This document shows positions 9,318 to 32,000 of a stretch of DNA of 32,000 nt, one piece after another. The notes under the pieces are model-generated. The model did no database searches, was not told where the DNA came from, and saw nothing but the letters and a program-made list of their open reading frames with translations. The position numbers and the translations under genes are program-made. Each line of letters opens with the position of its first letter. Positions within the stretch are counted from its first letter, which is position 1. The DNA is from Fastidiosibacter lacustris (GTDB lineage: Bacteria; Pseudomonadota; Gammaproteobacteria; Francisellales; Francisellaceae), in NCBI RefSeq assembly GCF_003428155.1, contig NZ_QLIR01000001.1, forward strand, positions 224,558 through 256,557, written 5' to 3'.

Positions 9318-11939
9318 TTAGTTAAATCCAGCTTTTGGTGTATAGCCTGGAATCATAGTGAGCCTTTGATCAAGTGAACTTTCGCTAGTACCACCTAGCC
9401 CTTTTAGCTCAAATTGAATAATGAAAGCATTGGTTAAAGGTCCTGTAATTTGAGAGGGATTGTTTGGATCACTAGATGAATTGACATATCTTTGTGCTAA
9501 GAAGCGAATTGCCCAACTGCAGGCATCATATTGAATGCCAGCAAACATGTTAGTCGTATGGCGTGAATTAAACGCATAACTCCACAATCCTGTGATTGAC
9601 CAATGAGGATTGAGTTTCCAGATAGTGGAAAAAGTAATTTGTGATAGTGAGTCAGGTAAACTACCTGCTTGAATTTGCTCTGGTGTGAGTGCTGCATAGT
9701 TATTTTTAATATTTTGGTAACCAATGTTAAAAATATGACTTTCGTTTGGTATATATTGTATTTGATAGGTTTGTAAGTCTATATTGTTGTTTTGTGGATT
9801 ATAAGTTGCATTGGTCATGAGTTGCCAATGTGGCAGAAACCGATAATTAAAAAATGCAGCTATATCAGAGGTGTTTGTGTTATAAAATGGGATTTTTGAG
9901 CTTGGGTTGGCACAATTAGCATTTGTACCTGAGCATAATGATACTTCACGATTCGCAAAATAAATAATTTGTCCAATTCCAGCGCTTAAAACATTTACAC
10001 CAGTTTCTTGGTGATTGACAGATGTTTCTAAAGCATATGCGAGTTGGTTAGCATTATTAATTCGGTCAATACCAGTAAAAACGTTTGTCTGAAACAATGA
10101 AGTATAAGAGAAATTATTTAAAGAAGTGTCAAACAGTGGAATGTTACTTTGGTTTTGATAGGGGATATAGGTGTAAAAGAGTCTAGGTTCTAAGGTTTGA
10201 GTGTAGTTGTGCTGATTAAAACTAAAATTATGATCAAAGTATAATCCTGTATCAATATTAATAATCGGAAGGCTGCGAATGATGTTTTGATCAGGATATT
10301 GGTTTTGGCTAAAATTAGGCGCAGTTGCAGCATTTCTGCTTTGTAAGCTATAAGCAGTTTCAGATAGGGTTATAGATGGGATAAAAAATCCCCAGTTTTT
10401 TTGAAAAGGAAAGCTGAGTTTTGGTGCACTGTAGTAACGTTGTCCTTGAACTTGGGATACATTATTTAAACCCGGTTTATAAAAATAAGTAAATTGGTTA
10501 TTCCACTCAAAGTTCATATGAGGTAATAAGCTTGGGTAACTCACATTAACATTGATTTGCGGCATCATCCAATAAGGTCGGTTGGCAAGATATATGGTAT
10601 CATCAATTACATCATAAGATTGAACGATTGCATTGATATTCCAGTTTTCATCGTTATAGTTTAGTTGTGCTTGTCTATTCAATAAAGTTTGTGTTGATAA
10701 ACCCATATTGTCACTATCAAAATCATTATAAAAATCTTTATCACCCACATATTGATAATTAAAATAGCTTGACCAATTCCTACCATACTGACCATTATCT
10801 GTAATAGAAAGCGCTTTACGATCAGTGTTAGCAATGCGATCATGTGGCATGTATTGCATATCTAAACTACCATTGTGCGTTTGAGTTAAATAACGAAAGT
10901 TGCTACCGATTAAAACGCCTTTATGATTATAGATGGTTGGTGTTAATAACAGATCATAATTAGGTGCCGTGTTCCAGTAAAAGGGCGTAGAAAGGTAATA
11001 ATCTGAGTTGCTGTTATAGCCGGCAGTAGGATATAAAAATCCGCTGCGTCGGCGATTGTCAATTGGAAAAGTCATATAAGGCCAGTATAAAATTGGTATG
11101 TCTTTGGCGTAAAATAAAGTGTTATATGCAGTCCCTAGTCCTGATTCTCGGTCTAAATCAAGTGTTGTTGCACTGAGTATCCAATCATTGCCATAAGGGC
11201 TATCAGTGGTATAAGTAGCATTTTTTAAAGTATAATTTGTTTTGCTATTTTGAATGATCTTATCAGCATGACCGTGAGCAAAACCTGTGAAGTTATTTTC
11301 TTTTTCTATTACCTCATCAGAAGCTAAATTTGCCATTGAGCCACTTGGTTTTTGGCGTACACGAATAAGGTAATAAGTATCATCTAAGGTTGCTGTGTTA
11401 TTGGTAATATTTGCATTACCTTGAGAGCCAATGGCAAGCTGTCCAGGTTGACTTAAATTAACATTACCAGTAAGGCTGACATTACTGATTTTTTTATCTT
11501 CATTTTGTGTTAAAACGGCTTTATCTGCTGAGAGATATTGGTTTCCTTTTCTAACTTCAACCGCGCCTTCAGCAGTAATCGTACCACTTTGGGCATATTG
11601 ATATTGTTGAGCGTTGATCTTTGCTTCATTAGAAGGACCTTTGATAATCGGATATTGATAATAATAACCCCCACAAATATTATTTAGGTCCGTTGACGGT
11701 AACCAGCCTAAAGCATCAGCAATAATCTGCTTTTTTTCTTTAGGTAAGATATTTTTTTTAAATAAATCAGCATTGTTATTGTTGGTTTGGACACATTTCC
11801 AAGTATCTCCATTTGCTGTACATTGCCATGATTTTTGTAGTGGGTTTTCAATGGTGATCTTGCTGCTACCCATAGTAGGGAGCGTGCAAATTATCGCTAA
11901 GGGTAAAACCTTTTTATGTAACTTTATTGTTTTTTTCAT
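9318..11939 (-). CDS. lptD: LPS-assembly outer-membrane protein LptD
   Basis: 873 aa. Signal peptide, aromatic- and Asn-rich beta-barrel composition. Conserved position upstream of surA. Confidence 0.9.
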   Translation of the reverse strand: MKKTIKLHKKVLPLAIICTLPTMGSSKITIENPLQKSWQCTANGDTWKCVQTNNNNADLFKKNILPKEKKQIIADALGWLPSTDLNNICGGYYYQYPIIKGPSNEAKINAQQYQYAQSGTITAEGAVEVRKGNQYLSADKAVLTQNEDKKISNVSLTGNVNLSQPGQLAIGSQGNANITNNTATLDDTYYLIRVRQKPSGSMANLASDEVIEKENNFTGFAHGHADKIIQNSKTNYTLKNATYTTDSPYGNDWILSATTLDLDRESGLGTAYNTLFYAKDIPILYWPYMTFPIDNRRRSGFLYPTAGYNSNSDYYLSTPFYWNTAPNYDLLLTPTIYNHKGVLIGSNFRYLTQTHNGSLDMQYMPHDRIANTDRKALSITDNGQYGRNWSSYFNYQYVGDKDFYNDFDSDNMGLSTQTLLNRQAQLNYNDENWNINAIVQSYDVIDDTIYLANRPYWMMPQINVNVSYPSLLPHMNFEWNNQFTYFYKPGLNNVSQVQGQRYYSAPKLSFPFQKNWGFFIPSITLSETAYSLQSRNAATAPNFSQNQYPDQNIIRSLPIINIDTGLYFDHNFSFNQHNYTQTLEPRLFYTYIPYQNQSNIPLFDTSLNNFSYTSLFQTNVFTGIDRINNANQLAYALETSVNHQETGVNVLSAGIGQIIYFANREVSLCSGTNANCANPSSKIPFYNTNTSDIAAFFNYRFLPHWQLMTNATYNPQNNNIDLQTYQIQYIPNESHIFNIGYQNIKNNYAALTPEQIQAGSLPDSLSQITFSTIWKLNPHWSITGLWSYAFNSRHTTNMFAGIQYDACSWAIRFLAQRYVNSSSDPNNPSQITGPLTNAFIIQFELKGLGGTSESSLDQRLTMIPGYTPKAGFN

Positions 11940-23741: not shown

Positions 23742-24368
23742 CTATGGTGCGTTGTTATCAGGCTTATTGTCAATTGTCACGATGTCAATCCGATTGTGAC
23801 ACAATTTAGTTAGTGTTTGGCATGTGATTTTATATTGATCAACGGCAACTTCAAAAACAGCACTAACCCTATCGCTGAAAAATTCTTTTATGGGGGTGAG
23901 TTTAAGTGTATGTAGTGCTTGTTGTATCATTGCCGTATCGTGATATTGATAGTTAATACTAAAGATTTTTGTAACGATAAGCGGAATGAGTTGTGCATGA
24001 GCAATTACTTCACTTGCCGCTTGACCATAAGCTCGTACCAAGCCCCCAACGCCTAACTTTGTGCCACCAAAAATACGACTAACAATAATAACGACATTAA
24101 ATAAAGCTTTGCCTTGAATATGATTTAAGATTGGTTTGCCAGCAGAACCAGAAGGTTCGCCATCGTCACTAAAACGAGTAAGATTATTATCCAATATCTG
24201 ATAAGCCCAACAGTGATGATTGGCATTTGGATACTGTTGTTGTGCTTGTTGTAAATAAGCCTGCAATTTATGAGTTTTGTCAAGCGGATGCAAAGAAGCG
24301 ATAAATCGCGATTTTTTAATTGGTTCAATCTCGTATTGAAAGGGTTCTGCTATGGTGGAGTAAGCCAA
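23742..24368 (-). CDS. yigZ: IMPACT/YigZ-family protein
   Basis: 208 aa. UPF0029 motifs IKKSRFIA, DDGEPSGSAGKPIL and FGGTKLGVGGLVRAY. Non-ATG start. Confidence 0.85.
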   Translation of the reverse strand: MAYSTIAEPFQYEIEPIKKSRFIASLHPLDKTHKLQAYLQQAQQQYPNANHHCWAYQILDNNLTRFSDDGEPSGSAGKPILNHIQGKALFNVVIIVSRIFGGTKLGVGGLVRAYGQAASEVIAHAQLIPLIVTKIFSINYQYHDTAMIQQALHTLKLTPIKEFFSDRVSAVFEVAVDQYKITCQTLTKLCHNRIDIVTIDNKPDNNAP

Positions 24369-24593
24369 CGTTTTTTCTTTAAGATTTAAGGTAGGTTATT
24401 TTAGGGGTTATCTTAGCTTAATTTAAAAGTATTCCTAAATATTTTATTTTGTTTTTTCATGTTGTTATTTGTAATTAAGTTTACATTTTTTTTGAGATAG
24501 GGTATTTTCTGAATTGGGAAAATTTATAAGTATTTGTGATGAAAAGGTTTATTTGTCACAATTTATTAAAGAAGGATAGGTAGAACGATTATT

Positions 24594-26871
24594 ATGGAAA
24601 ATATTAGAAATTATTATGCTCACTCAGGAAACTTGATGGACAAATCAGATTGGCAGCTATTATCTGATCATTTGCAAACGGTGGCTGATATAGCTTGGCA
24701 TAATGCACGCTATACTGGTTGCGAAGGACTTGCTGCTTTGGCTGGTTTGCTCCATGACTTAGGAAAATATACCAAAGAGTTTCAAGCACGTTTGGAAGGT
24801 TCAAGCAGAAAAGTTGATCATGCAACTGCGGGAGCAAAAATTGCAGCAGAAATTTTGCCAGATAAGTTGTTGAACGGTTTCCCTTTCTTTAAGTTAATTG
24901 CCTATGCAATCGCGGGACACCATGCAGGGCTTGCTAATGGCATAGATGAGGGTGATGGTAGAAGCTGTTTAAAGGATCGCTTAAGTCAAAACTTTGGCAA
25001 AGAATTATGTGTATTGGATGAGTTAGCATGGAAAAGTGCATTGCAACTACCATCAAGAGAATCTCTTACACTAAAGATTAAACTACATCCAGATACTGAC
25101 TTTCATGGCTTTCAATATGCTTTTTTGATTCGCATGATTTTTTCTTGTTTGGTCGATGCTGATTTTATCGATACAGATAGATTTTACAAAAAACTTAAAA
25201 ATAAACCTTGGTTAAGAGGTGAATATCCACACTTAAACGAACTTAAAATTCAACTGGATGATTATTTGGTAAGAAAACAGGAGGGGTGTGAAGATACTTT
25301 TGTTAATCAATTGCGTCATGAAATTCTTTTAAACGCTAGAAAAAAAGCACAATTATCTCCAGGATTATTTAGTCTAACCGTGCCGACAGGTGGTGGTAAA
25401 ACACTGACATCGATGGCGTTTGCTTTAGACCATGCTTTGGCACATAACATGCGCCGAGTGATCTATGTTATTCCTTTTACCAGTATTATCGAACAGAATG
25501 CAAAAGTTTTTAGAGAAGTTTTTGGTGATTTGGGAGAGTCTGCCGTTTTGGAACACCATAGCAATTTTAATGATCGCACAATTACAAATGAAGAAACTCA
25601 AGATAAGCTTAAATTGGCGATGGAAAATTGGGATATGTCTGTGATAGTAACAACTGCGGTTCAATTTTTTGAATCGCTGTTTGCGGATCGTCCTTCACGC
25701 TGCCGAAAATTGCATAATATTACAGAAAGTGTGATTATCTTGGATGAAGCACAAACGCTACCACTAAAATTTTTGCGCCCTGTGATGGCGGTAATTGATG
25801 AGTTAGCTCGAAATTATCATTGTTCAGTTGTTCTTTGTACGGCAACACAACCTGCTTTATGTCAACCAGATTTTGACAAGGGATTTGTTAATGTCAGAGA
25901 AATTGCCCCTAATCCAAGTAAGTTATTTGACGATTTAAGCTTGGTTAGTATAAGCCATTTAGGTGAATTGACAGACGATGAAATTTTAGCTCGTATGATA
26001 GATAATGAGCAAATTTTAACAATCGTCAATAATCGTCGTCATGCTCAATCGTTGTTCCAATCATTGAAAGAGCGTCAAGTAGAAGGTATTTTTCATTTGA
26101 CTACACTCATGTGCGCGATACATCGCACAAAAAAGTTAGAAATCATTCGTAAAAGACTTAAAGAGAAAAAAAACCTGTCGCGTTGTCTCAAGTTCATTAA
26201 TTGAAGCAGGGGTCGATGTTGATTTTCCTTATGTAATGCGTGCTGAGGCAGGTTTAGACTCCATAGCTCAAGCTGCAGGACGCTGTAATCGTGAACGTAA
26301 AAGGGCAAAAGAAGACAGCCACGTTTGGATTTTTAAATCACCAGATTGGCAAGTTCCACCAGAGCTAAAAAGTTTAGCGGCTGGTATGCGATCAACTTTG
26401 CGTCAAAATTTTGACAATCTGCTGGGGCAGGAAGCAATTAAGACTTATTTTTCGGAAGTCTACTGGCGCAAAGGTGCTGAGTTAGATCAAAAACAGCTTT
26501 TAAAAGACTGTAGCAATCATGCAAAAAAACTGAGTTTTCCATTTCAAAATATTGCAAGAGATTTTCTTATGATTGAAAGTTGTATGCAGCCAGTATTTAT
26601 CCAGTTTGATAATGAAGCGGAGCATTTATTGAAAGAGTTGGAGGTAACGGATGATGTAAGCCGCATATTACGTAAACTACAACCTTATATAGTGCAGATT
26701 CCAAAGCAAGGGTTTGATAGTTTGGTAGCTACTAATGCCGTACAAACGGTGGCGCCTTATCGATTTCAAGAACAGTTTTGGGTACTGATCAATCGTGATA
26801 TATATGATGATGAATGTGGTATCAGTTGGGATAATCCAACTTTTATGAAGGCTGAGAGTTCCATCTTTTGA
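24594..26871 (+). pseudogene. cas3: Type I-C Cas3 (HD nuclease + SF2 helicase), split by a +1 frameshift in an A8 run
   Basis: ORF 24594-26204 carries the HD motifs (LHDLGK, DHATAGA), helicase motif I TVPTGGGKT and motif II ILDEAQ. ORF 26236-26871, whose frame is open from 26140, continues with CRVVSSSLIEAGVDVDF and motif VI QAAGRCNRE. Removing one A from 26166-26173 joins the two as ...RLKEKK-TCRVVSS.... Confidence 0.9.
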
Positions 26872-26886
26872 GAACAATCAAAAGAA
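26862..26886 (-). promoter_or_regulatory. Predicted Cascade binding site: TTC PAM plus a 22-nt partial protospacer for the mini-array pseudo-spacer
   Basis: The minus strand reads TTC|TTTTGATTGTTCTCAAAAGATG. The pseudo-spacer is TTTTGTTTGTTATCAAATGATG.... They are identical at positions 1-22 except 6, 12 and 18. The site overlaps the cas3 stop codon (26869-26871). Its PAM edge is 7 bp upstream of the -35 hexamer at 26894. Confidence 0.7.
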
Positions 26887-26893
26887 AAAATAT

Positions 26894-26922
26894 TTGACTT
26901 AACTTATGTTTGAATTTAGAAT
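26894..26922 (+). promoter_or_regulatory. Sigma70-type promoter TTGACT-17 nt-TAGAAT
   Basis: -35 TTGACT (26894-26899), an exactly 17-nt spacer, and -10 TAGAAT (26917-26922). An A-rich UP-like tract (26880-26893) lies upstream. The promoter points toward the small ORF, the mini-array and cas5. Confidence 0.55.
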
Positions 26923-26957
26923 CCTTCTTAAGGAGTTTAAGCAGCTGGAAGTGAAAC

Positions 26958-27107
26958 ATGAAAAATTGTTGGGCGATCCATATTGAAAAAAATGAGAGTG
27001 GGAAGCTGATATTAAAATTTGGTGGACAGCTGCATTTTCCAGTAAAAACTGTAGGATGGAGTTTTGCTGCACTTTTAGTTGTAGTGGTGGGAAAGTTCTT
27101 TTTTTGA
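26958..27107 (+). CDS. Hypothetical 49-aa peptide with a hydrophobic C-terminal segment (candidate small membrane toxin or leader peptide)
   Basis: ATG at 26958 is preceded by GGAAG (26946-26950). Hand translation: MKNCWAIHIEKNESGKLILKFGGQLHFPVKTVGWSFAALLVVVVGKFFF, ending at TGA 27105-27107. It is too short for the supplied ORF track. It lies between the promoter and the mini-array. No homology is claimed. Confidence 0.4.
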   Translation: MKNCWAIHIEKNESGKLILKFGGQLHFPVKTVGWSFAALLVVVVGKFFF

Positions 27108-27133
27108 ATTTTCACCTATTCATTGCGATTGTA

Positions 27134-27221
27134 GTCGCATCTCATGTGAATGCGTGGATTGAAACTTTTGTTTGTTATCAAATGATGAGATCGCACCCCA
27201 TGCGGGTGCGTGGATAAGGAG
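27134..27221 (+). CRISPR. Degenerate two-repeat type I-C mini-array (creA/CreR-like): psiR1, a 24-nt pseudo-spacer, psiR2
   Basis: psiR1 (27134-27165) is GTCGCATCTCATGTGAATGCGTGGATTGAAAC. The pseudo-spacer (27166-27189) is TTTTGTTTGTTATCAAATGATGAG. psiR2 (27190-27221) is ATCGCACCCCATGCGGGTGCGTGGATAAGGAG. Both repeats fit the known I-C pattern GTCGC-hairpin-GCGTGGATTGAAAC and are 21/32 identical to each other. Confidence 0.85.
27155..27210 (+). ncRNA. Predicted mature crRNA-like RNA: 11-nt 5' handle, 24-nt guide, 21-nt 3' hairpin
   Basis: Boundaries come from applying the known Cas5d cleavage position (3' base of the repeat stem) to psiR1 and psiR2. The handle is UGGAUUGAAAC. The 3' hairpin is CGCACCC-CAUGC-GGGUGCG. 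Prediction only, with no expression data. Confidence 0.45.
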
Positions 27222-27227
27222 GCAGAG

Positions 27228-27908
27228 ATGGCTTATGGTATTAAGCTGCATGTGTGGGGAGAGTATGCTTGTTTTACCAGACCCGAAATGAAGGTGGAGC
27301 GCGTATCTTATGATGTAATTACGCCATCTGCGGCCAGAGGGATTTTGGAGGCAATTCACTGGAAACCCGCGATTTGTTGGGTGATTGATCGCATTCATGT
27401 GTTAAAACCTGTGCGTTTTGAAACGATTAGGCGAAACGAGTTAGGGAATTGCAAAATTTCTACCTCTAAAGTCAGTGGTGCAATGAAGCGTAAAAGTACT
27501 CAAGATTTATATTTTTTGATTGATGATGGAGATAATCGTCAACAAAGAGCAACGACACTTTTGCGTGATGTTGGTTATGTGGTTGAAGCACATTTTGAGT
27601 TAACTAATAAAGTAGGTAATGAAGATTCAGTTGGCAAGCATCTTGATATATTTAATCGCAGAGCGCGCAAAGGACAATATTTTCATCAGCCTTGCTTGGG
27701 AAATCGTGAATTCCCTGCTTATTTTTCGTTGATTGAGTCGGATGAGGATTTTCCTCTTTCTGAGTTAAGTCAAGAGACTAAAGATTTAGGTTGGATGTTG
27801 CATGATATTGATTTTGCCAATGCCGCGACCCCAAAATTCTTTCGCGCCAAATTAATAAATGGAGTGATTGATGTTCCGCCTTTTAGAACTTTGGGGGTGG
27901 TGCAATGA
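27228..27908 (+). CDS. cas5: Type I-C Cas5 (Cas5d/Cas5c), Cascade subunit and pre-crRNA endonuclease
   Basis: 226 aa from the ATG at 27228, which has a strong SD AAGGAGG (27216-27222) 5 nt upstream. The N-terminus MAYGIKLHVWGEYACFTRPEMKVERVSYDVITPSAARGILEAI is the canonical Cas5d start. The stop overlaps the cas8c ATG (ATGA). Confidence 0.93.
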   Translation: MAYGIKLHVWGEYACFTRPEMKVERVSYDVITPSAARGILEAIHWKPAICWVIDRIHVLKPVRFETIRRNELGNCKISTSKVSGAMKRKSTQDLYFLIDDGDNRQQRATTLLRDVGYVVEAHFELTNKVGNEDSVGKHLDIFNRRARKGQYFHQPCLGNREFPAYFSLIESDEDFPLSELSQETKDLGWMLHDIDFANAATPKFFRAKLINGVIDVPPFRTLGVVQ

Positions 27909-29731
27909 TTCTAACCGCTTTAACCCAATATTATAATCGACTGGCGAATACGGAAAAAGGTGCAAAAGTACCTGCTTATGGATTTAGTGAAGAAAAAATC
28001 GGCTATATTTTAGTGCTGTCTGAGTCAGGGGAGTTAGTGGATGTTGTGCCTAATTTCACCGATGAAAAAAAGCCCAAAGCAAAATTAATGAGCGTACCAT
28101 GCCCAGAAAAAAGAACATCAGGTATTAAGCCTAACTTTTTGTGGGATAAAACGGCATATGTTTTAGGTGTCTCACTGCCAAAAGACAAAAAAAGTGAATC
28201 AACGTTTGAGCTATCGCTACCTAATTTCGAGGCTTTTAAGAGCTATCATCTCAAATTATTAAAAAATCAAGAAGAGAAAGGTCTAAAGGCATTGTCCAAT
28301 TTTTTACAAAATTGGCAACCAGAAGAATTTGAAAGTTCATTGTGTACACCTGAAATTTTGGATGCCAACGTGATATTTCAATTGGATGGTGTTAGGCAAT
28401 ACATTCACGAGTCCCAATTGGCTAAGGCAATTTGGGCGAATCAACTGAAATCAGATGATGCATCTGATGATGCTATGTGTCTGATAACAGGTACTCAAAC
28501 GCCTATTTCAAGATTGCACCCAGCAATTAAAGGTGTCTCTGGTGGACAAAGCTCCGGAGTGTCGATTGTTTCCTTTAATAAAGAATCATTTGAATCTTTT
28601 GGCAAGAAACAAGGTGATAATGCACCAGTTTCTGTACAAGCTGCTTTTGCCTATACGACTGCCTTAAACTACCTATTACGCGACGAAAATAATCAAGTTA
28701 TCAGCTTGGGTGATACTAGCGTTGTTTTCTGGGCATTAGCTAAAAAAGAAGAACAGGCAAAAAAAGTAGAATCTTTCTTTATGATGGGGTTTAATCCGCC
28801 ATCACCTACCGATGACAGTGAAACAGTTCAATTGAATGCTGAGTTAGAGAAGTTTACTAAAGGTCGACCCTTGGCAGAGATTGATCCTGAGCTTGATCCT
28901 GACACCCAGTTCTTTATTTTGGGATTGACGCCTAATGCAGCGCGTCTTTCGATTCGTTTTTGGTTACAAACTAGTTTTGGTCAGATTCAGCAAAGACTTG
29001 CTGAGCATTTTCAAGATTTAGCCTTAGCTCCTTTACCTTGGAAAACACCACCATCTATTTGGCGTCTTTTATTACAGCTAAGTCCTCATCGTGAAGGGCA
29101 GAAAAGTAAGATAGATGATGTCCCAGTACATTTGGCTGGAGAGTTAATGCGTTCTATTTTGACGGGGCAGCGTTATCCAAGATCTATTATTGCACAAATT
29201 TTATCTAGATTTAGAGCTGATGGAGATATTGGGGGTTTAAGAATTGCTATGGTAAAAGCTGTTTTGCAAAGAGAATTTAGGAAAAATTTGATAACAGAGG
29301 AGATCCCTATGAGTTTAGATGAGTCAAATACCAATCAAGCGTATTTGCTTGGCAGGCTTTTTGCCGTGTTAGAGAATATACAGGAAAGAGCTTTGGGTGA
29401 TAAGTTGAATGCTACGATTGCTGATAAATACTATGCTTCAGCCTCAACTGTGCCATATTCAGTTTATCCGCGATTACTATCAGGAAGCAAACATCACTTG
29501 TCTAAAGTTCGCAAAGATAAACCAAAGTTAGCAGTCTATTTGGAAAATAGGCTTGGTCAAATTATGACACAATTACCAACAGAATTCCCACGCCATTTTT
29601 CTATCGAAAATCAAGGGCGTTTTTCGATTGGCTATTATCAGCAAAAGTTCACCCCCTCTAAAGAAAAAGAAGATCCAAAAGACAAAGAAGATCCAACTAA
29701 GTCTATTGATGAAACACAAGGAGTAGAATAA
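27905..29731 (+). CDS. cas8c: Type I-C large subunit Cas8c (Csd1)
   Basis: 608 aa. Sits between cas5 and cas7. The N-terminus MILTALTQYYNRL and the C-terminal AYLLGRLFAVLE region are typical of Csd1. Confidence 0.92.
   Translation: MILTALTQYYNRLANTEKGAKVPAYGFSEEKIGYILVLSESGELVDVVPNFTDEKKPKAKLMSVPCPEKRTSGIKPNFLWDKTAYVLGVSLPKDKKSESTFELSLPNFEAFKSYHLKLLKNQEEKGLKALSNFLQNWQPEEFESSLCTPEILDANVIFQLDGVRQYIHESQLAKAIWANQLKSDDASDDAMCLITGTQTPISRLHPAIKGVSGGQSSGVSIVSFNKESFESFGKKQGDNAPVSVQAAFAYTTALNYLLRDENNQVISLGDTSVVFWALAKKEEQAKKVESFFMMGFNPPSPTDDSETVQLNAELEKFTKGRPLAEIDPELDPDTQFFILGLTPNAARLSIRFWLQTSFGQIQQRLAEHFQDLALAPLPWKTPPSIWRLLLQLSPHREGQKSKIDDVPVHLAGELMRSILTGQRYPRSIIAQILSRFRADGDIGGLRIAMVKAVLQREFRKNLITEEIPMSLDESNTNQAYLLGRLFAVLENIQERALGDKLNATIADKYYASASTVPYSVYPRLLSGSKHHLSKVRKDKPKLAVYLENRLGQIMTQLPTEFPRHFSIENQGRFSIGYYQQKFTPSKEKEDPKDKEDPTKSIDETQGVE
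29309..29731 (+). CDS. cas11c: Cas11c small subunit from an internal in-frame start within cas8c
   Basis: In-frame ATG at 29309, preceded by GAGGAG (29297-29302) with 6-nt spacing. It yields 140 aa starting MSLDESNTNQAYLLGRLFAVLE. Internal translation of Cas11 from cas8c is established for type I-C. Confidence 0.6.
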   Translation: MSLDESNTNQAYLLGRLFAVLENIQERALGDKLNATIADKYYASASTVPYSVYPRLLSGSKHHLSKVRKDKPKLAVYLENRLGQIMTQLPTEFPRHFSIENQGRFSIGYYQQKFTPSKEKEDPKDKEDPTKSIDETQGVE

Positions 29732-30601
29732 ATGACTATCCAACATCGTTATGAATTTGTTTATTTTTTTGATGTCACTAATGGTAATCCAAATGGCGAT
29801 CCTGATGCAGGAAATATGCCTCGTCTTGATCCTGAATCTAGCAAAGGATTAGTGACGGATGTCAGTTTAAAACGTAAAATCCGTAACTACATTCAGTTTA
29901 GTAATGAAAATAAGCCTGGCTATGACATTTATGTGCAAGAAAAAAGTATATTAAATCAGCAGAATCAGAAAGCTTATGATGCTTTAGAAATTAAAGCAGA
30001 ACCTAAAAAGTTACCAAAAGATCAGGAAAAAGCTAAAGCTATTACTGATTGGATGTGTGCTAATTTCTTTGACGTTCGCGCTTTTGGTGCAGTCATGACA
30101 ACGGAAGTGAATTCAGGTCAGGTGCGCGGACCATTTCAGTTAGCATTTGCAAAATCAATTGATCCAATTATTCCTTTGGAGATCTCTATTACGCGAATGG
30201 CGGTGACGAATGAGAAAGATTTAGAAAAAGAACGTACGATTGGACGCAAACATATTGTGCCTTATGGTTTATATCGTGTACATGGTTTTATTTCAGCAAA
30301 ACTAGCAGAAAAAACAGGGTTTTCTGAAAGTGATTTAAGTAAATTGTGGAAAGCCTTAGAAATGATGTTTGAACACGATCATTCTGCTGCTCGTGGTGAG
30401 ATGTCAGCACGTAAGTTGATTGTATTTAAACATCAGGATATGCTAGGGAATGCTCCAGCGTACAAGTTATTTAATCGTGTTACTGTTGAGCGTGTGAAAG
30501 GTGAATTAGGTACGCCAGCCAGTGCATTTGATGATTATGTAATTCATTTGGATACGTCAGGCTTAGAGACTTTAGGAGTTGAAGCGAGAGAGCTTTTTTA
30601 A
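29732..30601 (+). CDS. cas7: Type I-C Cas7 (Csd2) backbone subunit
   Basis: 289 aa. Contains FDVTNGNPNGDPDAGNMPR and DVRAFGAVMT, which are typical Csd2/Cas7 motifs. Confidence 0.93.
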   Translation: MTIQHRYEFVYFFDVTNGNPNGDPDAGNMPRLDPESSKGLVTDVSLKRKIRNYIQFSNENKPGYDIYVQEKSILNQQNQKAYDALEIKAEPKKLPKDQEKAKAITDWMCANFFDVRAFGAVMTTEVNSGQVRGPFQLAFAKSIDPIIPLEISITRMAVTNEKDLEKERTIGRKHIVPYGLYRVHGFISAKLAEKTGFSESDLSKLWKALEMMFEHDHSAARGEMSARKLIVFKHQDMLGNAPAYKLFNRVTVERVKGELGTPASAFDDYVIHLDTSGLETLGVEARELF

Positions 30602-30608
30602 CTGTGTT

Positions 30609-31223
30609 ATGTCGGATATATTAATCTCCCTTTCCGCCCTCCAGCACTATGCCTTTTGTCCTAGGCAATGTGCGCTTATTCACAATGAGCAAGTGTGGTC
30701 AGAGAATTGGTTGACCGCTCAAGGGCAGCAATTACATCAGCGTGTTGATAGTGGCGTGCCTGAAACACGCAAAGGGATTCGTTATGAGCGAGCTGTGCGT
30801 GTTTCAGCACCTAAACTGGGCTTAGTTGGTAAGCTTGATCTTATTGAAGTGGATATTAAAACAGGTATTTGTTTTCCAGTGGAATATAAACGTGGCAAGC
30901 CAAAACAAGATCATATCGATCTTATTCAGTTATGTGCGCAAGTATTGTGCCTTGAGGAGATGCTTAAACTGAGCATTAATCATGTTGCAATGTGGTATTG
31001 GCAGACAAAGCATCGCATTGAGGTTGTATTAACGCAAAGCTTGCGTGATGAAACGCTGACTATAATTGAAAAAACAAGGATGTTACTGGAAAGTGGGATG
31101 ACTCCTAAAGCCAAATATGAGAAAAAGTGTGATGCCTGTTCATTATACGATTTGTGTAACCCAAAACTTATGTTTAAAGACAAAAGCAAAGTATATGTGA
31201 ACATGCTTTTTCAGGAGGGATAG
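30609..31223 (+). CDS. cas4: Cas4 RecB-like exonuclease
   Basis: 204 aa from the ATG at 30609. Contains LQHYAFCPRQCAL and the C-terminal Cys cluster CDACSLYDLC (Fe-S). The DxK-type core reads VGKLDLIEV..EYKRGK. Confidence 0.9.
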   Translation: MSDILISLSALQHYAFCPRQCALIHNEQVWSENWLTAQGQQLHQRVDSGVPETRKGIRYERAVRVSAPKLGLVGKLDLIEVDIKTGICFPVEYKRGKPKQDHIDLIQLCAQVLCLEEMLKLSINHVAMWYWQTKHRIEVVLTQSLRDETLTIIEKTRMLLESGMTPKAKYEKKCDACSLYDLCNPKLMFKDKSKVYVNMLFQEG

Positions 31224-31226
31224 GCA

Positions 31227-31895
31227 TTGAAAAAATTACAAAACACACTCTATATCACCAAACAAGGCGCTTATTTGCACAAGGAACGTGAGACACTGGT
31301 CATTGAAGTTGAAAAGGAAAAAGCAATGCAGTTGCCTATTCATGCAATTCAGGCGATTTATTGCTTTGGTAATGTTATGGTATCACCTTTTTTGCTGGGA
31401 TTTTGTGGTGAGAATAATGTCCATTTGGCATTTTTTACTGAATATGGTCGTTTTCTTGGGCGTTTACATGGCACACAAAGTGGTAATATCTTGTTAAGGA
31501 AAGCACAATATAAAATTGCAGAAACTGATCCTGTACCTATTGCCAGAAATATAATTGCGGCAAAGCTTAATTCTTCACGAGCGGTATTATATCGCAGGTT
31601 ACGCAATCATGGGGAAAATAAAGCGGTTGAAAATGCAGTTGAGCAAATAAGTTATACTATCAGGCGCTTGCAAAAGACAGAAACTTTGGAGGCAAATTTA
31701 GGTTTAGAAGGTGAGGCTGCCTCCGTGTATTTTAGTGTTTTTAATGAATTGATTTTATCTGCTGTACAACCTGATTTTACTTTCGATATACGTAGTCGCA
31801 GACCTCCGTTGGATCCTGTTAATGCTATGCTATCATTTTTATATAGTGTCGTTGGAAATGATATTAGAGTTCCTTCCAAACCGTATTTAATCTAG
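31227..31895 (+). pseudogene. cas1: Cas1, 3'-truncated; native sequence ends near 31866
   Basis: TTG start after AGGAGGGA. The first ~213 aa are Cas1-like (TLYITKQGAYLHKERETLVIE, PPLDPVNAMLSFLYS). The frame then runs into unrelated sequence and stops at 222 aa, whereas I-C Cas1 proteins are typically ~340 aa. The catalytic C-terminal half is absent. Confidence 0.85.
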
Positions 31896-32000
31896 CAAAA
31901 TAGCTATTTAAAAATTAAAGGTGGATATGATCAATGAGATGGGAAACGATAAACAAGTTAGCAGCAGATGAGTTTCGTCGTTTAACAGGTGTAAAAAAGC
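31867..32000 (+). mobile_element. Left end of an insertion sequence interrupting cas1; the boundary is approximate
   Basis: Cas1 similarity is lost abruptly after ...GNDIR. An AT-rich leader, the SD AAAGGTGGA and a transposase-like ORF start follow. The other IS end lies outside the window. Confidence 0.5.
31934..32000 (+). CDS. Transposase N-terminus (partial, runs off the window), HTH_Tnp_4-like as in IS5-family/DDE_Tnp_4 elements
   Basis: Hand translation gives MRWETINKLAADEFRRLTGVKK.... The L..eF+R.tGV+k pattern is typical of N-termini of this transposase class (e.g. ISFtu2-like). Only 22 codons are visible. Confidence 0.45.
   Translation, partial: MRWETINKLAADEFRRLTGVKK

Follow-up and report, generated by a model that had tools for sequence, protein, structure and literature searches.

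Mini-arrays encoding regulators that resemble a CRISPR RNA (crRNA) are described from several CRISPR–Cas systems. In the CreTA module of the type I-B system of Haloarcula hispanica, a mini-CRISPR antitoxin guides Cascade onto the promoter of the neighbouring toxin gene, and a CRISPR-repressed toxin of this kind makes Cascade, but not Cas3, addictive (reviewed in PMC12737573). CreR mini-arrays were shown in type I-B, I-E and V-A systems and noted in type I-C (bioRxiv 10.1101/2023.03.10.532045), the type I-F CrePA module of Acinetobacter baylyi encodes a KilAC protein toxin (bioRxiv 10.1101/2024.01.05.574328), and computational surveys of such mini-arrays exist (bioRxiv 10.1101/2023.03.03.530964). 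In the type I-C loci of the CRISIS class, crRNA-like RNAs encoded between cas3 and cas5c were verified experimentally and repress cargo defence systems, using a TTC protospacer-adjacent motif (PAM) and an 11-nt 5' handle (bioRxiv 10.1101/2024.12.27.630466). Here, we describe a cassette between cas3 and cas5c of the type I-C cas operon of Fastidiosibacter lacustris, which lies at positions 24594–32000 of a stretch of 32,000 nt (contig NZ_QLIR01000001.1, positions 224,558 to 256,557; hereafter, the window). The autoregulation of such a cassette by a crRNA-like RNA and Cascade is of a known kind, and its small cargo is apparently undescribed. We propose, as a reading that stands about even, that this conserved and self-regulated cassette is repressed by Cascade, that it makes the cell addicted to Cascade, and that the immunity function of the operon was lost recently.

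The locus shares with CRISIS the type I-C setting, a cargo between cas3 and cas5c, repeat units that immediately precede cas5c and a target that lies upstream of the promoter of the cargo, as well as the 11-nt 5' handle, the TTC PAM and an expected product of about 56–57 nt. However, the CRISIS cargo is a defence system of 1.5–4.6 kb (Nezha, Gabija, TIR, Sir2 and others), whereas the cassette described here is ~340 nt long and carries one ~50-aa protein predicted to be a one-helix membrane protein; an anti-phage role is not indicated. As in CrePA, a protein open reading frame (ORF) lies in the intergenic region between cas3 and the effector genes, and the two-repeat CreA likewise targets a promoter by a partial match next to a cognate PAM; its repression, which is independent of Cas3, was counted as a shared feature. 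CrePA differs in belonging to type I-F and in encoding CreP, a 103-aa cell-division inhibitor with a KilAC domain, while the ORF found here would encode a small membrane peptide that has no Pfam match. The arrangement of CreTA, in which the first repeat-like unit (psiR1) keeps the 5' handle and the second (psiR2) the 3' handle, is also seen here, and the addiction that CreTA creates extends to the Cascade genes but to neither cas3 nor the adaptation genes. Its toxin CreT is an RNA that sequesters a rare tRNA, and its guide is processed by Cas6, whereas the candidate here is a conserved protein and the putative processing enzyme is Cas5c. Like CreR, the locus has its target adjoining the promoter of the effector genes, an arrangement for self-repression of Cascade, but CreR is defined as lacking a toxin gene and a conserved ORF lies here between the promoter and the mini-array. 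The cargo further resembles the toxins of type I toxin–antitoxin systems (Hok, TisB, Fst-like) in its length of ~50 aa, its single hydrophobic helix, its lack of annotation and its RNA antitoxin. It shows no sequence similarity to them, and its control would act on transcription through Cascade rather than through antisense pairing with the mRNA. We found no description of a compact type I-C cassette with a ~50-aa membrane-protein cargo in the literature searched.

The mini-array (positions 27134–27221) consists of psiR1 and psiR2 around a 24-nt pseudo-spacer (psiS). The canonical repeat used for comparison, GTCGCACCCCGCATGGGTGCGTGGATTGAAAC, occurs in four copies after cas2 in a sister strain described below; type I-C repeats are 32-nt hairpin repeats ending in ATTGAAAC. 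Within its last 15 nt, which are identical to the canonical repeat, psiR1 retains the 11-nt 5' handle TGGATTGAAAC, and its hairpin is weakened. The fold of psiR2 has the same structure as that of the canonical repeat and a similar energy (−12.8 vs. −12.5 kcal/mol). This division, with the 5' handle in psiR1 and the hairpin in psiR2, is the one known from CreA/CreR and type I-C crRNA-like RNAs characterised by experiment (bioRxiv 10.1101/2023.03.10.532045 and 10.1101/2024.12.27.630466). When both strands of the window were searched with psiS (64,000 positions), the best match was a TTC-flanked site on the minus strand (26883..26860) with 19 of 24 positions paired and mismatches at positions 6, 12, 18, 23 and 24. 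In type I R-loops, every sixth position is unpaired. Of 5000 shuffled spacers, 5 reached 19/24 when compared with all 986 TTC sites of the window. The PAM of the site lies 7 nt upstream of the −35 box of a TTGACT-17-TAGAAT promoter, which is followed in order by the 49-aa ORF, the mini-array and cas5, so that a partial match, a cognate PAM and a promoter are found together. In relatives, this distance is 8 nt to a TTGACA box (Vibrio metschnikovii, L003), or the target overlaps the −35 box (a Methylotenera metagenome-assembled genome (MAG), L005).

A Cas5c scan of the genome collection yielded 80 species-level type I-C loci. Their cas3–cas5 spacers fell into classes of ≤100 nt (many loci), about 305–370 nt (about 22 loci) and 1.5–2.2 kb (Neisseria, Haemophilus). 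In the longer classes, the repeat-handle motif precedes cas5, and the pseudo-spacer downstream of the motif differs between species. The pseudo-spacers of about 22 loci other than the window match a TTC site located 4–70 nt past the stop codon of their own cas3, which none of 200 shuffles achieved in any of them, and the mismatches in these co-varying loci concentrate at positions 6 and 12. As the spacer and its target co-vary between species, the evidence for a functional guide–target pair is strong, and we conclude from these sequence comparisons that the mini-array encodes a true guide of Cascade, directed at the predicted promoter of the small ORF, the mini-array and cas5-8-7.

Some further features of the guide and its target were observed. 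Two of the ten single-nucleotide polymorphisms (SNPs) of the cas region that distinguish the window from the sister strain fall in the guide/target pair, namely 27149 in psiR1 and 26862 in the target. The latter, at target position 22 and also in codon 756 of cas3, pairs with the pseudo-spacer in the window only, the sister strain having a mismatch there. Positions 27211–27221 at the psiR2 3' end, which would hold the 5' handle of a following crRNA, have become the Shine–Dalgarno sequence AAGGAGG of cas5. If Cas5c cleaves psiR2 at the foot of its hairpin, the cas5-8-7 mRNA would be severed immediately upstream of its ribosome-binding site. The arrangement is similar in locus L021, and in V. 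metschnikovii the ribosome-binding site lies 40 nt further downstream. Right before the ATG of the small ORF, at 26941–26957, lies GCAGCTGGAAGTGAAAC, which apart from one indel looks like the part of the repeat that holds the 3' handle (GCGTGGATTGAAAC); neither V. metschnikovii nor the Methylotenera MAG conserves it, and the likeness is probably a coincidence.

A small ORF of ~50 aa between the targeted promoter and the mini-array was found in 15 species-level loci including the window, in diverse Proteobacteria that include Vibrio, Methylotenera, Thiodiazotropha, Oleiphilus, Brachymonas, Azoarcus, Thauera and Lysobacter. Subfamily A comprises ten of them (the window, L003 at 9733–9885, L005 at 9709–9870, L014, L021, L030, L039, L048, L054 and L087) and shares the motif W-x-[IV]-x-[IV]-x-K...F-x-G, after which comes a hydrophobic tail. 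In the five members of subfamily B (L024, L025, L027, L041 and L071), the N-terminus is acidic, hydrophobic residues alternate and the tail is again hydrophobic. AlphaFold2, run with 11 sequences, predicted strands at residues 5–11 and 17–23 and a helix at residues 29–48 of the 49-aa protein (mean predicted local distance difference test score, 71). No match to Pfam, NCBIfam or PADLOC was obtained for the small ORF at permissive thresholds, and these searches gave no homology to CreP with its KilAC domain and nothing similar to a known defence protein. When 5.8 billion proteins were searched with a profile of the family, 10 members were returned, all of them unnamed and 'hypothetical'. By analogy with the type I toxins and CreP, the 49-aa protein would most likely be harmful when de-repressed.

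These elements suggest the following mechanism. The sigma-70-type promoter would transcribe the 49-aa ORF, the two-repeat mini-array and, by read-through, cas5c-cas8c-cas7. Cas5c would trim the mini-array part of the transcript to a crRNA-like RNA of ~56 nt with a predicted 5' start of UGGAUUGAAAC, composed of the 11-nt 5' handle, the 24-nt pseudo-spacer and a hairpin handle of 21 nt. With this RNA as its guide, Cascade would bind the TTC-flanked site abutting the −35 box. We infer that the short guide gives an R-loop too short to license Cas3, so that the promoter is repressed and the DNA remains uncut, which would place both Cascade and the small ORF under negative feedback. A loss of Cascade, or its block by an anti-CRISPR, would then de-repress the small protein and penalise the cell, while a loss of cas3 or cas1 would carry no cost. 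The strain studied here would have lately lost its immunity through a +1 frameshift in cas3 and the interruption of cas1 by an IS5-like insertion; its cas3, cas4 and cas1 would have begun to drift, with cas5c, cas8c, cas7 and the cassette being kept unchanged.

The comparison needed to date the lesions was provided by an exact-protein look-up of Cas5c, which led to contig JAMBMW010000001.1 of assembly GCA_024208055.1 (L001) and to an assembly of a Logan read set (L002). The exact look-ups of Cas5 and Cas7 matched the same sister strain and the read set, which has the same SNPs and is probably the same strain. L001 belongs to 'Candidatus Nebulobacter yamunensis', which lives as an obligate endosymbiont in the ciliate Euplotes and is conspecific with the free-living F. 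lacustris SYSU HZH-2T at an average nucleotide identity of 99.38% (PMC9837558). The window and L001 can be aligned along 14,659 bp at 99.87% identity, differing by 18 SNPs and a single gap, and the alignment ends at 31867. The operon of L001 is complete and contains cas3 as one ORF of 758 aa, cas5c, cas8c, cas7, cas4, cas1 (339 aa), cas2 and a four-repeat array. No further close strains were found, the nearest relatives being 85% (Cas5c, genome scan) and 76% (Cas8c, metagenome scan) identical, and a within-species or within-genus ratio of nonsynonymous to synonymous substitution rates is therefore impossible to calculate. It should be noted that an intact CRISPR–Cas system in a ciliate endosymbiont and a decayed locus in the free-living F. 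lacustris are the reverse of what genome reduction would lead one to expect.

The sole indel relative to L001 (14.6-kb alignment) and L002 (6.4-kb alignment) is one extra A, giving a run of A8 instead of A7. The Cas3 frame is shifted by +1 past residue ~526, before helicase motifs V and VI are reached, so that Cas3 is split between two frames. The resulting 536-aa product was absent from the records in an exact-product look-up. Transcriptional slippage on A-runs could restore a small fraction of full-length mRNA, and the A8 allele of cas3 may hence be leaky rather than null. In cas1, the identity to L001 stops abruptly at 31867/31868, after codon ~214, and the following 133 nt show no similarity to L001. 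The first 22 aa of the ORF starting at 31934 gave two weak tblastn matches (E = 2–4), both annotated as IS5-family transposase genes. Within the 133 nt visible, no DNA match in plasmids, no second copy within the window and no Pfam or NCBIfam match was found, and the DNA interrupting cas1 is probably an IS5-family insertion sequence (IS). The gene name rgy denotes reverse gyrase and is one that Cas3 helicases can attract; the Cas3 fragment of the window also matches the rgy model weakly. The published pseudogenes of F. lacustris with intact Nebulobacter orthologs include 'rgy, 258' in split form, which is probably a misnamed Cas3, as well as 'cas1 (end of contig)' (PMC9837558, Table S2e). These entries would place the window at the end of an F. 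lacustris contig.

The sequence-only reading of this DNA had described a broken nuclease gene and broken adaptation genes next to an intact Cascade. The cas3 frameshift and the cas1 truncation were borne out, with the IS nature of the latter being probable. The adaptation genes were broken only as far as cas1 is concerned, as cas4 is intact and cas2 lies beyond the window. The claim of intact and tightly coupled Cascade genes was also upheld: their scores are far above the NCBIfam cut-offs, cas5c, cas8c and cas7 show zero nucleotide differences from L001, and both the ATGA overlap of cas5c and cas8c and the adjacent stop and start codons of cas8c and cas7 are present. A candidate internal start in cas8c (nt 29309, Met469, with GAGGAG upstream) leaves 140 aa and is a plausible start of Cas11c. 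The mini-array was present as claimed, with one SNP in psiR1. That reading was to fall if the frameshift proved to be a sequencing error, which we judge unlikely, and the IS insertion very recent or strain-specific. Both lesions are indeed strain-specific and very recent, since the sister strain, at 0.13% divergence, is wholly intact, and one of the conditions set for refuting the reading thus applies.

The distribution of substitutions was then compared between the genes. In cas3, there are three synonymous and three nonsynonymous SNPs (K331T, P349S and G378E), in cas4 one nonsynonymous SNP (A126V) and in the retained part of cas1 two (T32K and I157N). This amounts to 6 nonsynonymous changes in 3.5 kb of cas3, cas4 and cas1, compared with no SNP at all in the 3,392 bp of the Cascade genes; the flanking housekeeping genes (~6.5 kb) have five synonymous and two nonsynonymous SNPs. 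Although these tests are post hoc and based on tiny numbers, all 9 cas-gene SNPs lie outside the Cascade genes (p ~ 0.002), as do 6/6 of the nonsynonymous cas-gene changes when weighted by length (p ~ 0.018), and cas3, cas4 and cas1 hold 6/8 of the nonsynonymous changes of the entire aligned coding sequence (p ~ 0.005). Polarisation of the SNPs against up to 72 homologs showed that four of the changes are derived in the lineage of the window. P349S replaces a proline found in 72/72 homologs in the PVIVTT helicase motif, and G378E, six residues before the DEAQ box (motif II), affects a position that is Gly in 52/72 and Glu in 0/72. At the site of A126V in Cas4, all homologs have Gly or Ala, and that of I157N in Cas1 is hydrophobic in nearly all. 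K331T and T32K fall at variable sites. The pattern suggests that cas3, cas4 and cas1, but not the Cascade genes, are under relaxed constraint in this lineage, and it gives modest support (p about 0.01–0.02) to the view that Cascade has remained under selection after the loss of immunity.

For 162 loci, we further scored whether each cas gene is intact and compared this with the occurrence of the handle motif before cas5. As few loci have decayed, this survey has low power, and some of the 'broken' calls may be assembly or MAG errors or alignments running past gene ends. Among 64 handle-positive loci, broken copies numbered one for cas3 (the window), zero for cas5, two for cas8c, one for cas7, two for cas4 and two for cas1 (one of them the window). 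The corresponding numbers for 89 handle-negative loci were six, two, one, four, one and zero. In 41 of the 42 scorable cassette-bearing loci, cas3 is intact, the exception being the window, and to judge from gene content such loci are normally complete, functional type I-C systems. Locus L041, a candidate for a second decayed locus from the tblastn table, was rejected as its cas3 is one intact ORF of 760 aa.

Several of these results weigh against the proposal that a repressed cassette cargo keeps Cascade in place. With the window set aside, the broken genes of the handle-positive loci are three Cascade genes, no cas3 and three cas4 or cas1 genes. The tabulation of gene integrity against the mini-array that the sequence-only reading called for thus shows no trend over the 162 loci, and cas3 and the adaptation genes are not preferentially lost. 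The decay is known from a single lineage with a single sister strain across the collections searched, and at 18 SNPs in 14.6 kb intact Cascade genes are expected under neutrality too. That both disruptions miss the Cascade genes has a probability of 0.55 squared, or ~0.31, by gene length, which is not significant. Synonymous changes are also absent from Cascade, with ~2.5 expected (P(0) ~ 0.08), and since selection on the protein cannot explain this, the asymmetry may partly reflect chance or uneven divergence. The change of G to A at 27149 in psiR1, which removes a C–G pair of the hairpin, is probably derived in the lineage of the window. The small ORF shares the transcription unit of Cascade and must therefore be tolerated at a basal level, and the argument from addiction depends on the putative toxicity of its product. 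Finally, loci L045 and L076 carry the mini-array without the ORF and fit CreR exactly, which implies that the cassette can serve as a pure regulator of Cas genes without a toxin. Most of these observations are just what would follow if two random lesions had struck an operon so recently that Cascade is intact for lack of time, the cassette being a CreR-type autoregulator that has no role in gene survival. The 129 predicted pseudogenes among 1914 ORFs and the 25 IS copies of F. lacustris (PMC9837558) agree with such an erosion. A useless Cascade should, however, drift as much as cas3, cas4 and cas1 do, and their share of the nonsynonymous changes (p ~ 0.02) is not even; moreover, autoregulation of the Cas genes does not by itself account for the small membrane ORF that is conserved between target and mini-array. 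We regard neutral erosion as possible, though on the doubtful side. The expectation of the sequence-only reading that Cascade is selectively retained thus stands in part: the lesions and nonsynonymous changes do avoid Cascade, but the lesions are recent and the other loci show no corresponding trend.

The same damage could also have been selected, if cas3 and the adaptation genes were costly to the cell (through a self-targeting spacer or through recruitment of Cas3 at the cassette target), with Cascade, harmless without Cas3, not being selected against, or if the A-run served as a reversible switch. The pseudo-spacer does pair with its chromosomal target at positions 1–22 except 6, 12 and 18, to which the SNP at 26862 adds one pair relative to L001, and an indel in a homopolymer is reversible and open to partial rescue by slippage. 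Yet the coexistence of cassettes with intact cas3 in nearly all scorable loci indicates that the self-target is normally tolerated, and the further damaging substitutions in cas3 argue against a switch still in use; we consider a selected loss unlikely. The remaining alternative is an intact locus in which the extra A is a homopolymer error of sequencing or assembly and the end of cas1 is an assembly break or a chimeric contig end. A single-base indel in a homopolymer, a window that ends 133 nt past the junction, the published mark 'end of contig' for cas1 and the absence of the 536-aa product from the records would all suit an artefact. The derived, non-conservative changes at conserved sites of Cas3, Cas4 and Cas1, together with their absence from cas5, cas8c and cas7, are unexpected for functional genes at such divergence and make a real frameshift the better explanation. 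Besides, the ORF after the junction resembles IS5-family transposases, as a real insertion would, and the assembly coverage is 100x (PMC9837558), so that an artefact is very unlikely. We therefore return to the proposal of a Cascade-repressed cargo and a recent loss of immunity, for which the reading of the small membrane protein as a CRISPR-repressed toxin is plausible but unproven; Cascade may instead be retained for another regulatory role. The stronger version, in which the ~50-aa peptides are a new class of CRISPR-repressed membrane toxins making Cascade addictive and F. lacustris keeps an addicted, Cas3-less Cascade purely as an RNA-guided repressor, is tentative and in our view rather improbable.

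CRISPR-repressed toxins are thought to stabilise effectors, and natural cases of decayed immunity around a retained effector are scarce. The F. lacustris locus would be one of them, found in a strain that can be cultivated and for which an intact, near-identical sister strain can serve as the control, and it points to a compact, widespread and unannotated ~50-aa cargo family in type I-C loci. Should the small protein prove harmless, we would be dealing simply with one more autoregulator of the CreR type, whose recent pseudogenisation is unremarkable.

Two other kinds of locus were noted in the survey. In L004 (9936–10015), as well as in L088 and L089, the cas3–cas5 gap is about 56–60 nt and lacks the target, promoter, small ORF, psiR1 and pseudo-spacer. 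These loci are of the Alteromonadaceae type and rank next to Vibrio as the closest relatives. What they retain is the conserved leader of cas5 and a hairpin remnant resembling psiR2, and the cassette is evidently gained or lost as a block. The Neisseria/Haemophilus-type loci (L050, L055, L058, L060, L064, L077, L079 and many of L091–L163) have a cas3–cas5 gap of 1.5–4.6 kb, in which large cargo genes take the place of the small ORF; the N-termini of some of them are TIR-like or ATPase-like. Their pseudo-spacer, TAAAGTAGTTAGATTAGTCAGCTA, is nearly invariant and targets a TTC site just past cas3, and these loci match the published CRISIS class.

Table 1. Features of the type I-C cas operon and its cassette (positions in the window).
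Feature	Position	Strand	Remarks
cas3, 5' fragment	24594..26204	+	HD nuclease and first helicase motifs; premature stop from the frameshift; cas3_HD 110.6 bits, partial cas3_core; tblastn Cas3 residues 1-526, frame 0
cas3 frameshift site, A8 homopolymer	26166..26173	+	A7 in the sister strain
cas3, 3' part, +1 frame	26152..26871	+	Helicase motifs V/VI and C-terminal domain; ATG ORF listed at 26236-26871; tblastn residues 520-758, frame 1
Target of the crRNA-like RNA	26860..26886	-	Protospacer-like site 26883..26860, TTC PAM 26886..26884; overlaps the cas3 stop codon
Sigma-70-type promoter, TTGACT-17-TAGAAT	26894..26922	+	10/12 positions; best promoter-like site in 24300-27400
Small ORF, 49 aa	26958..27107	+	Cassette cargo, candidate toxin; predicted N-terminal beta-hairpin and C-terminal hydrophobic helix
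psiR1	27134..27165	+	25/32 identical to the canonical repeat (compared by eye); last 15 nt identical
psiS, 24-nt pseudo-spacer TTTTGTTTGTTATCAAATGATGAG	27166..27189	+	Canonical spacers are 33-35 nt
psiR2	27190..27221	+	Canonical 7-bp stem retained; 3' end degenerated into the cas5 Shine-Dalgarno sequence AAGGAGG
cas5c, intact	27210..27908	+	TIGR01876, 177 bits (cut-off 85); protein identical to sister strain
cas8c, intact	27905..29731	+	TIGR01863, 558 bits (cut-off 218.65)
cas7c, intact	29732..30601	+	TIGR02589, 387.8 bits (cut-off 182.25)
cas4, intact ORF	30609..31223	+	TIGR00372, 132 bits (cut-off 65); start as in L001; one derived change, A126V
cas1, truncated	31227..31867	+	~214/339 codons left; TIGR03640 positions 1-216/340, 259 bits vs. 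cut-off 385; T32K and I157N
DNA foreign to cas1, probably the end of an IS5-family IS	31868..32000	+	ORF starts at 31934

The coordinates of all features are collected in Table 1. The assignment to type I-C is based on NCBIfam models, as the subtype-specific Cas5c, Cas8c and Cas7 and the general Cas4 all scored above their cut-offs, and on the gene set, which runs from cas3, cas5c, cas8c and cas7c to cas4 and cas1 and includes no cas6. No CRISPR array was found within the window; the array and cas2 lie beyond its end. We discarded a 53-aa ORF at 27056–27217 that overlaps the mini-array, as its protein sequence is not conserved. The upstream neighbours of the operon are yigZ, a gene for an arsR-type regulator and one for a zntA-type ATPase.

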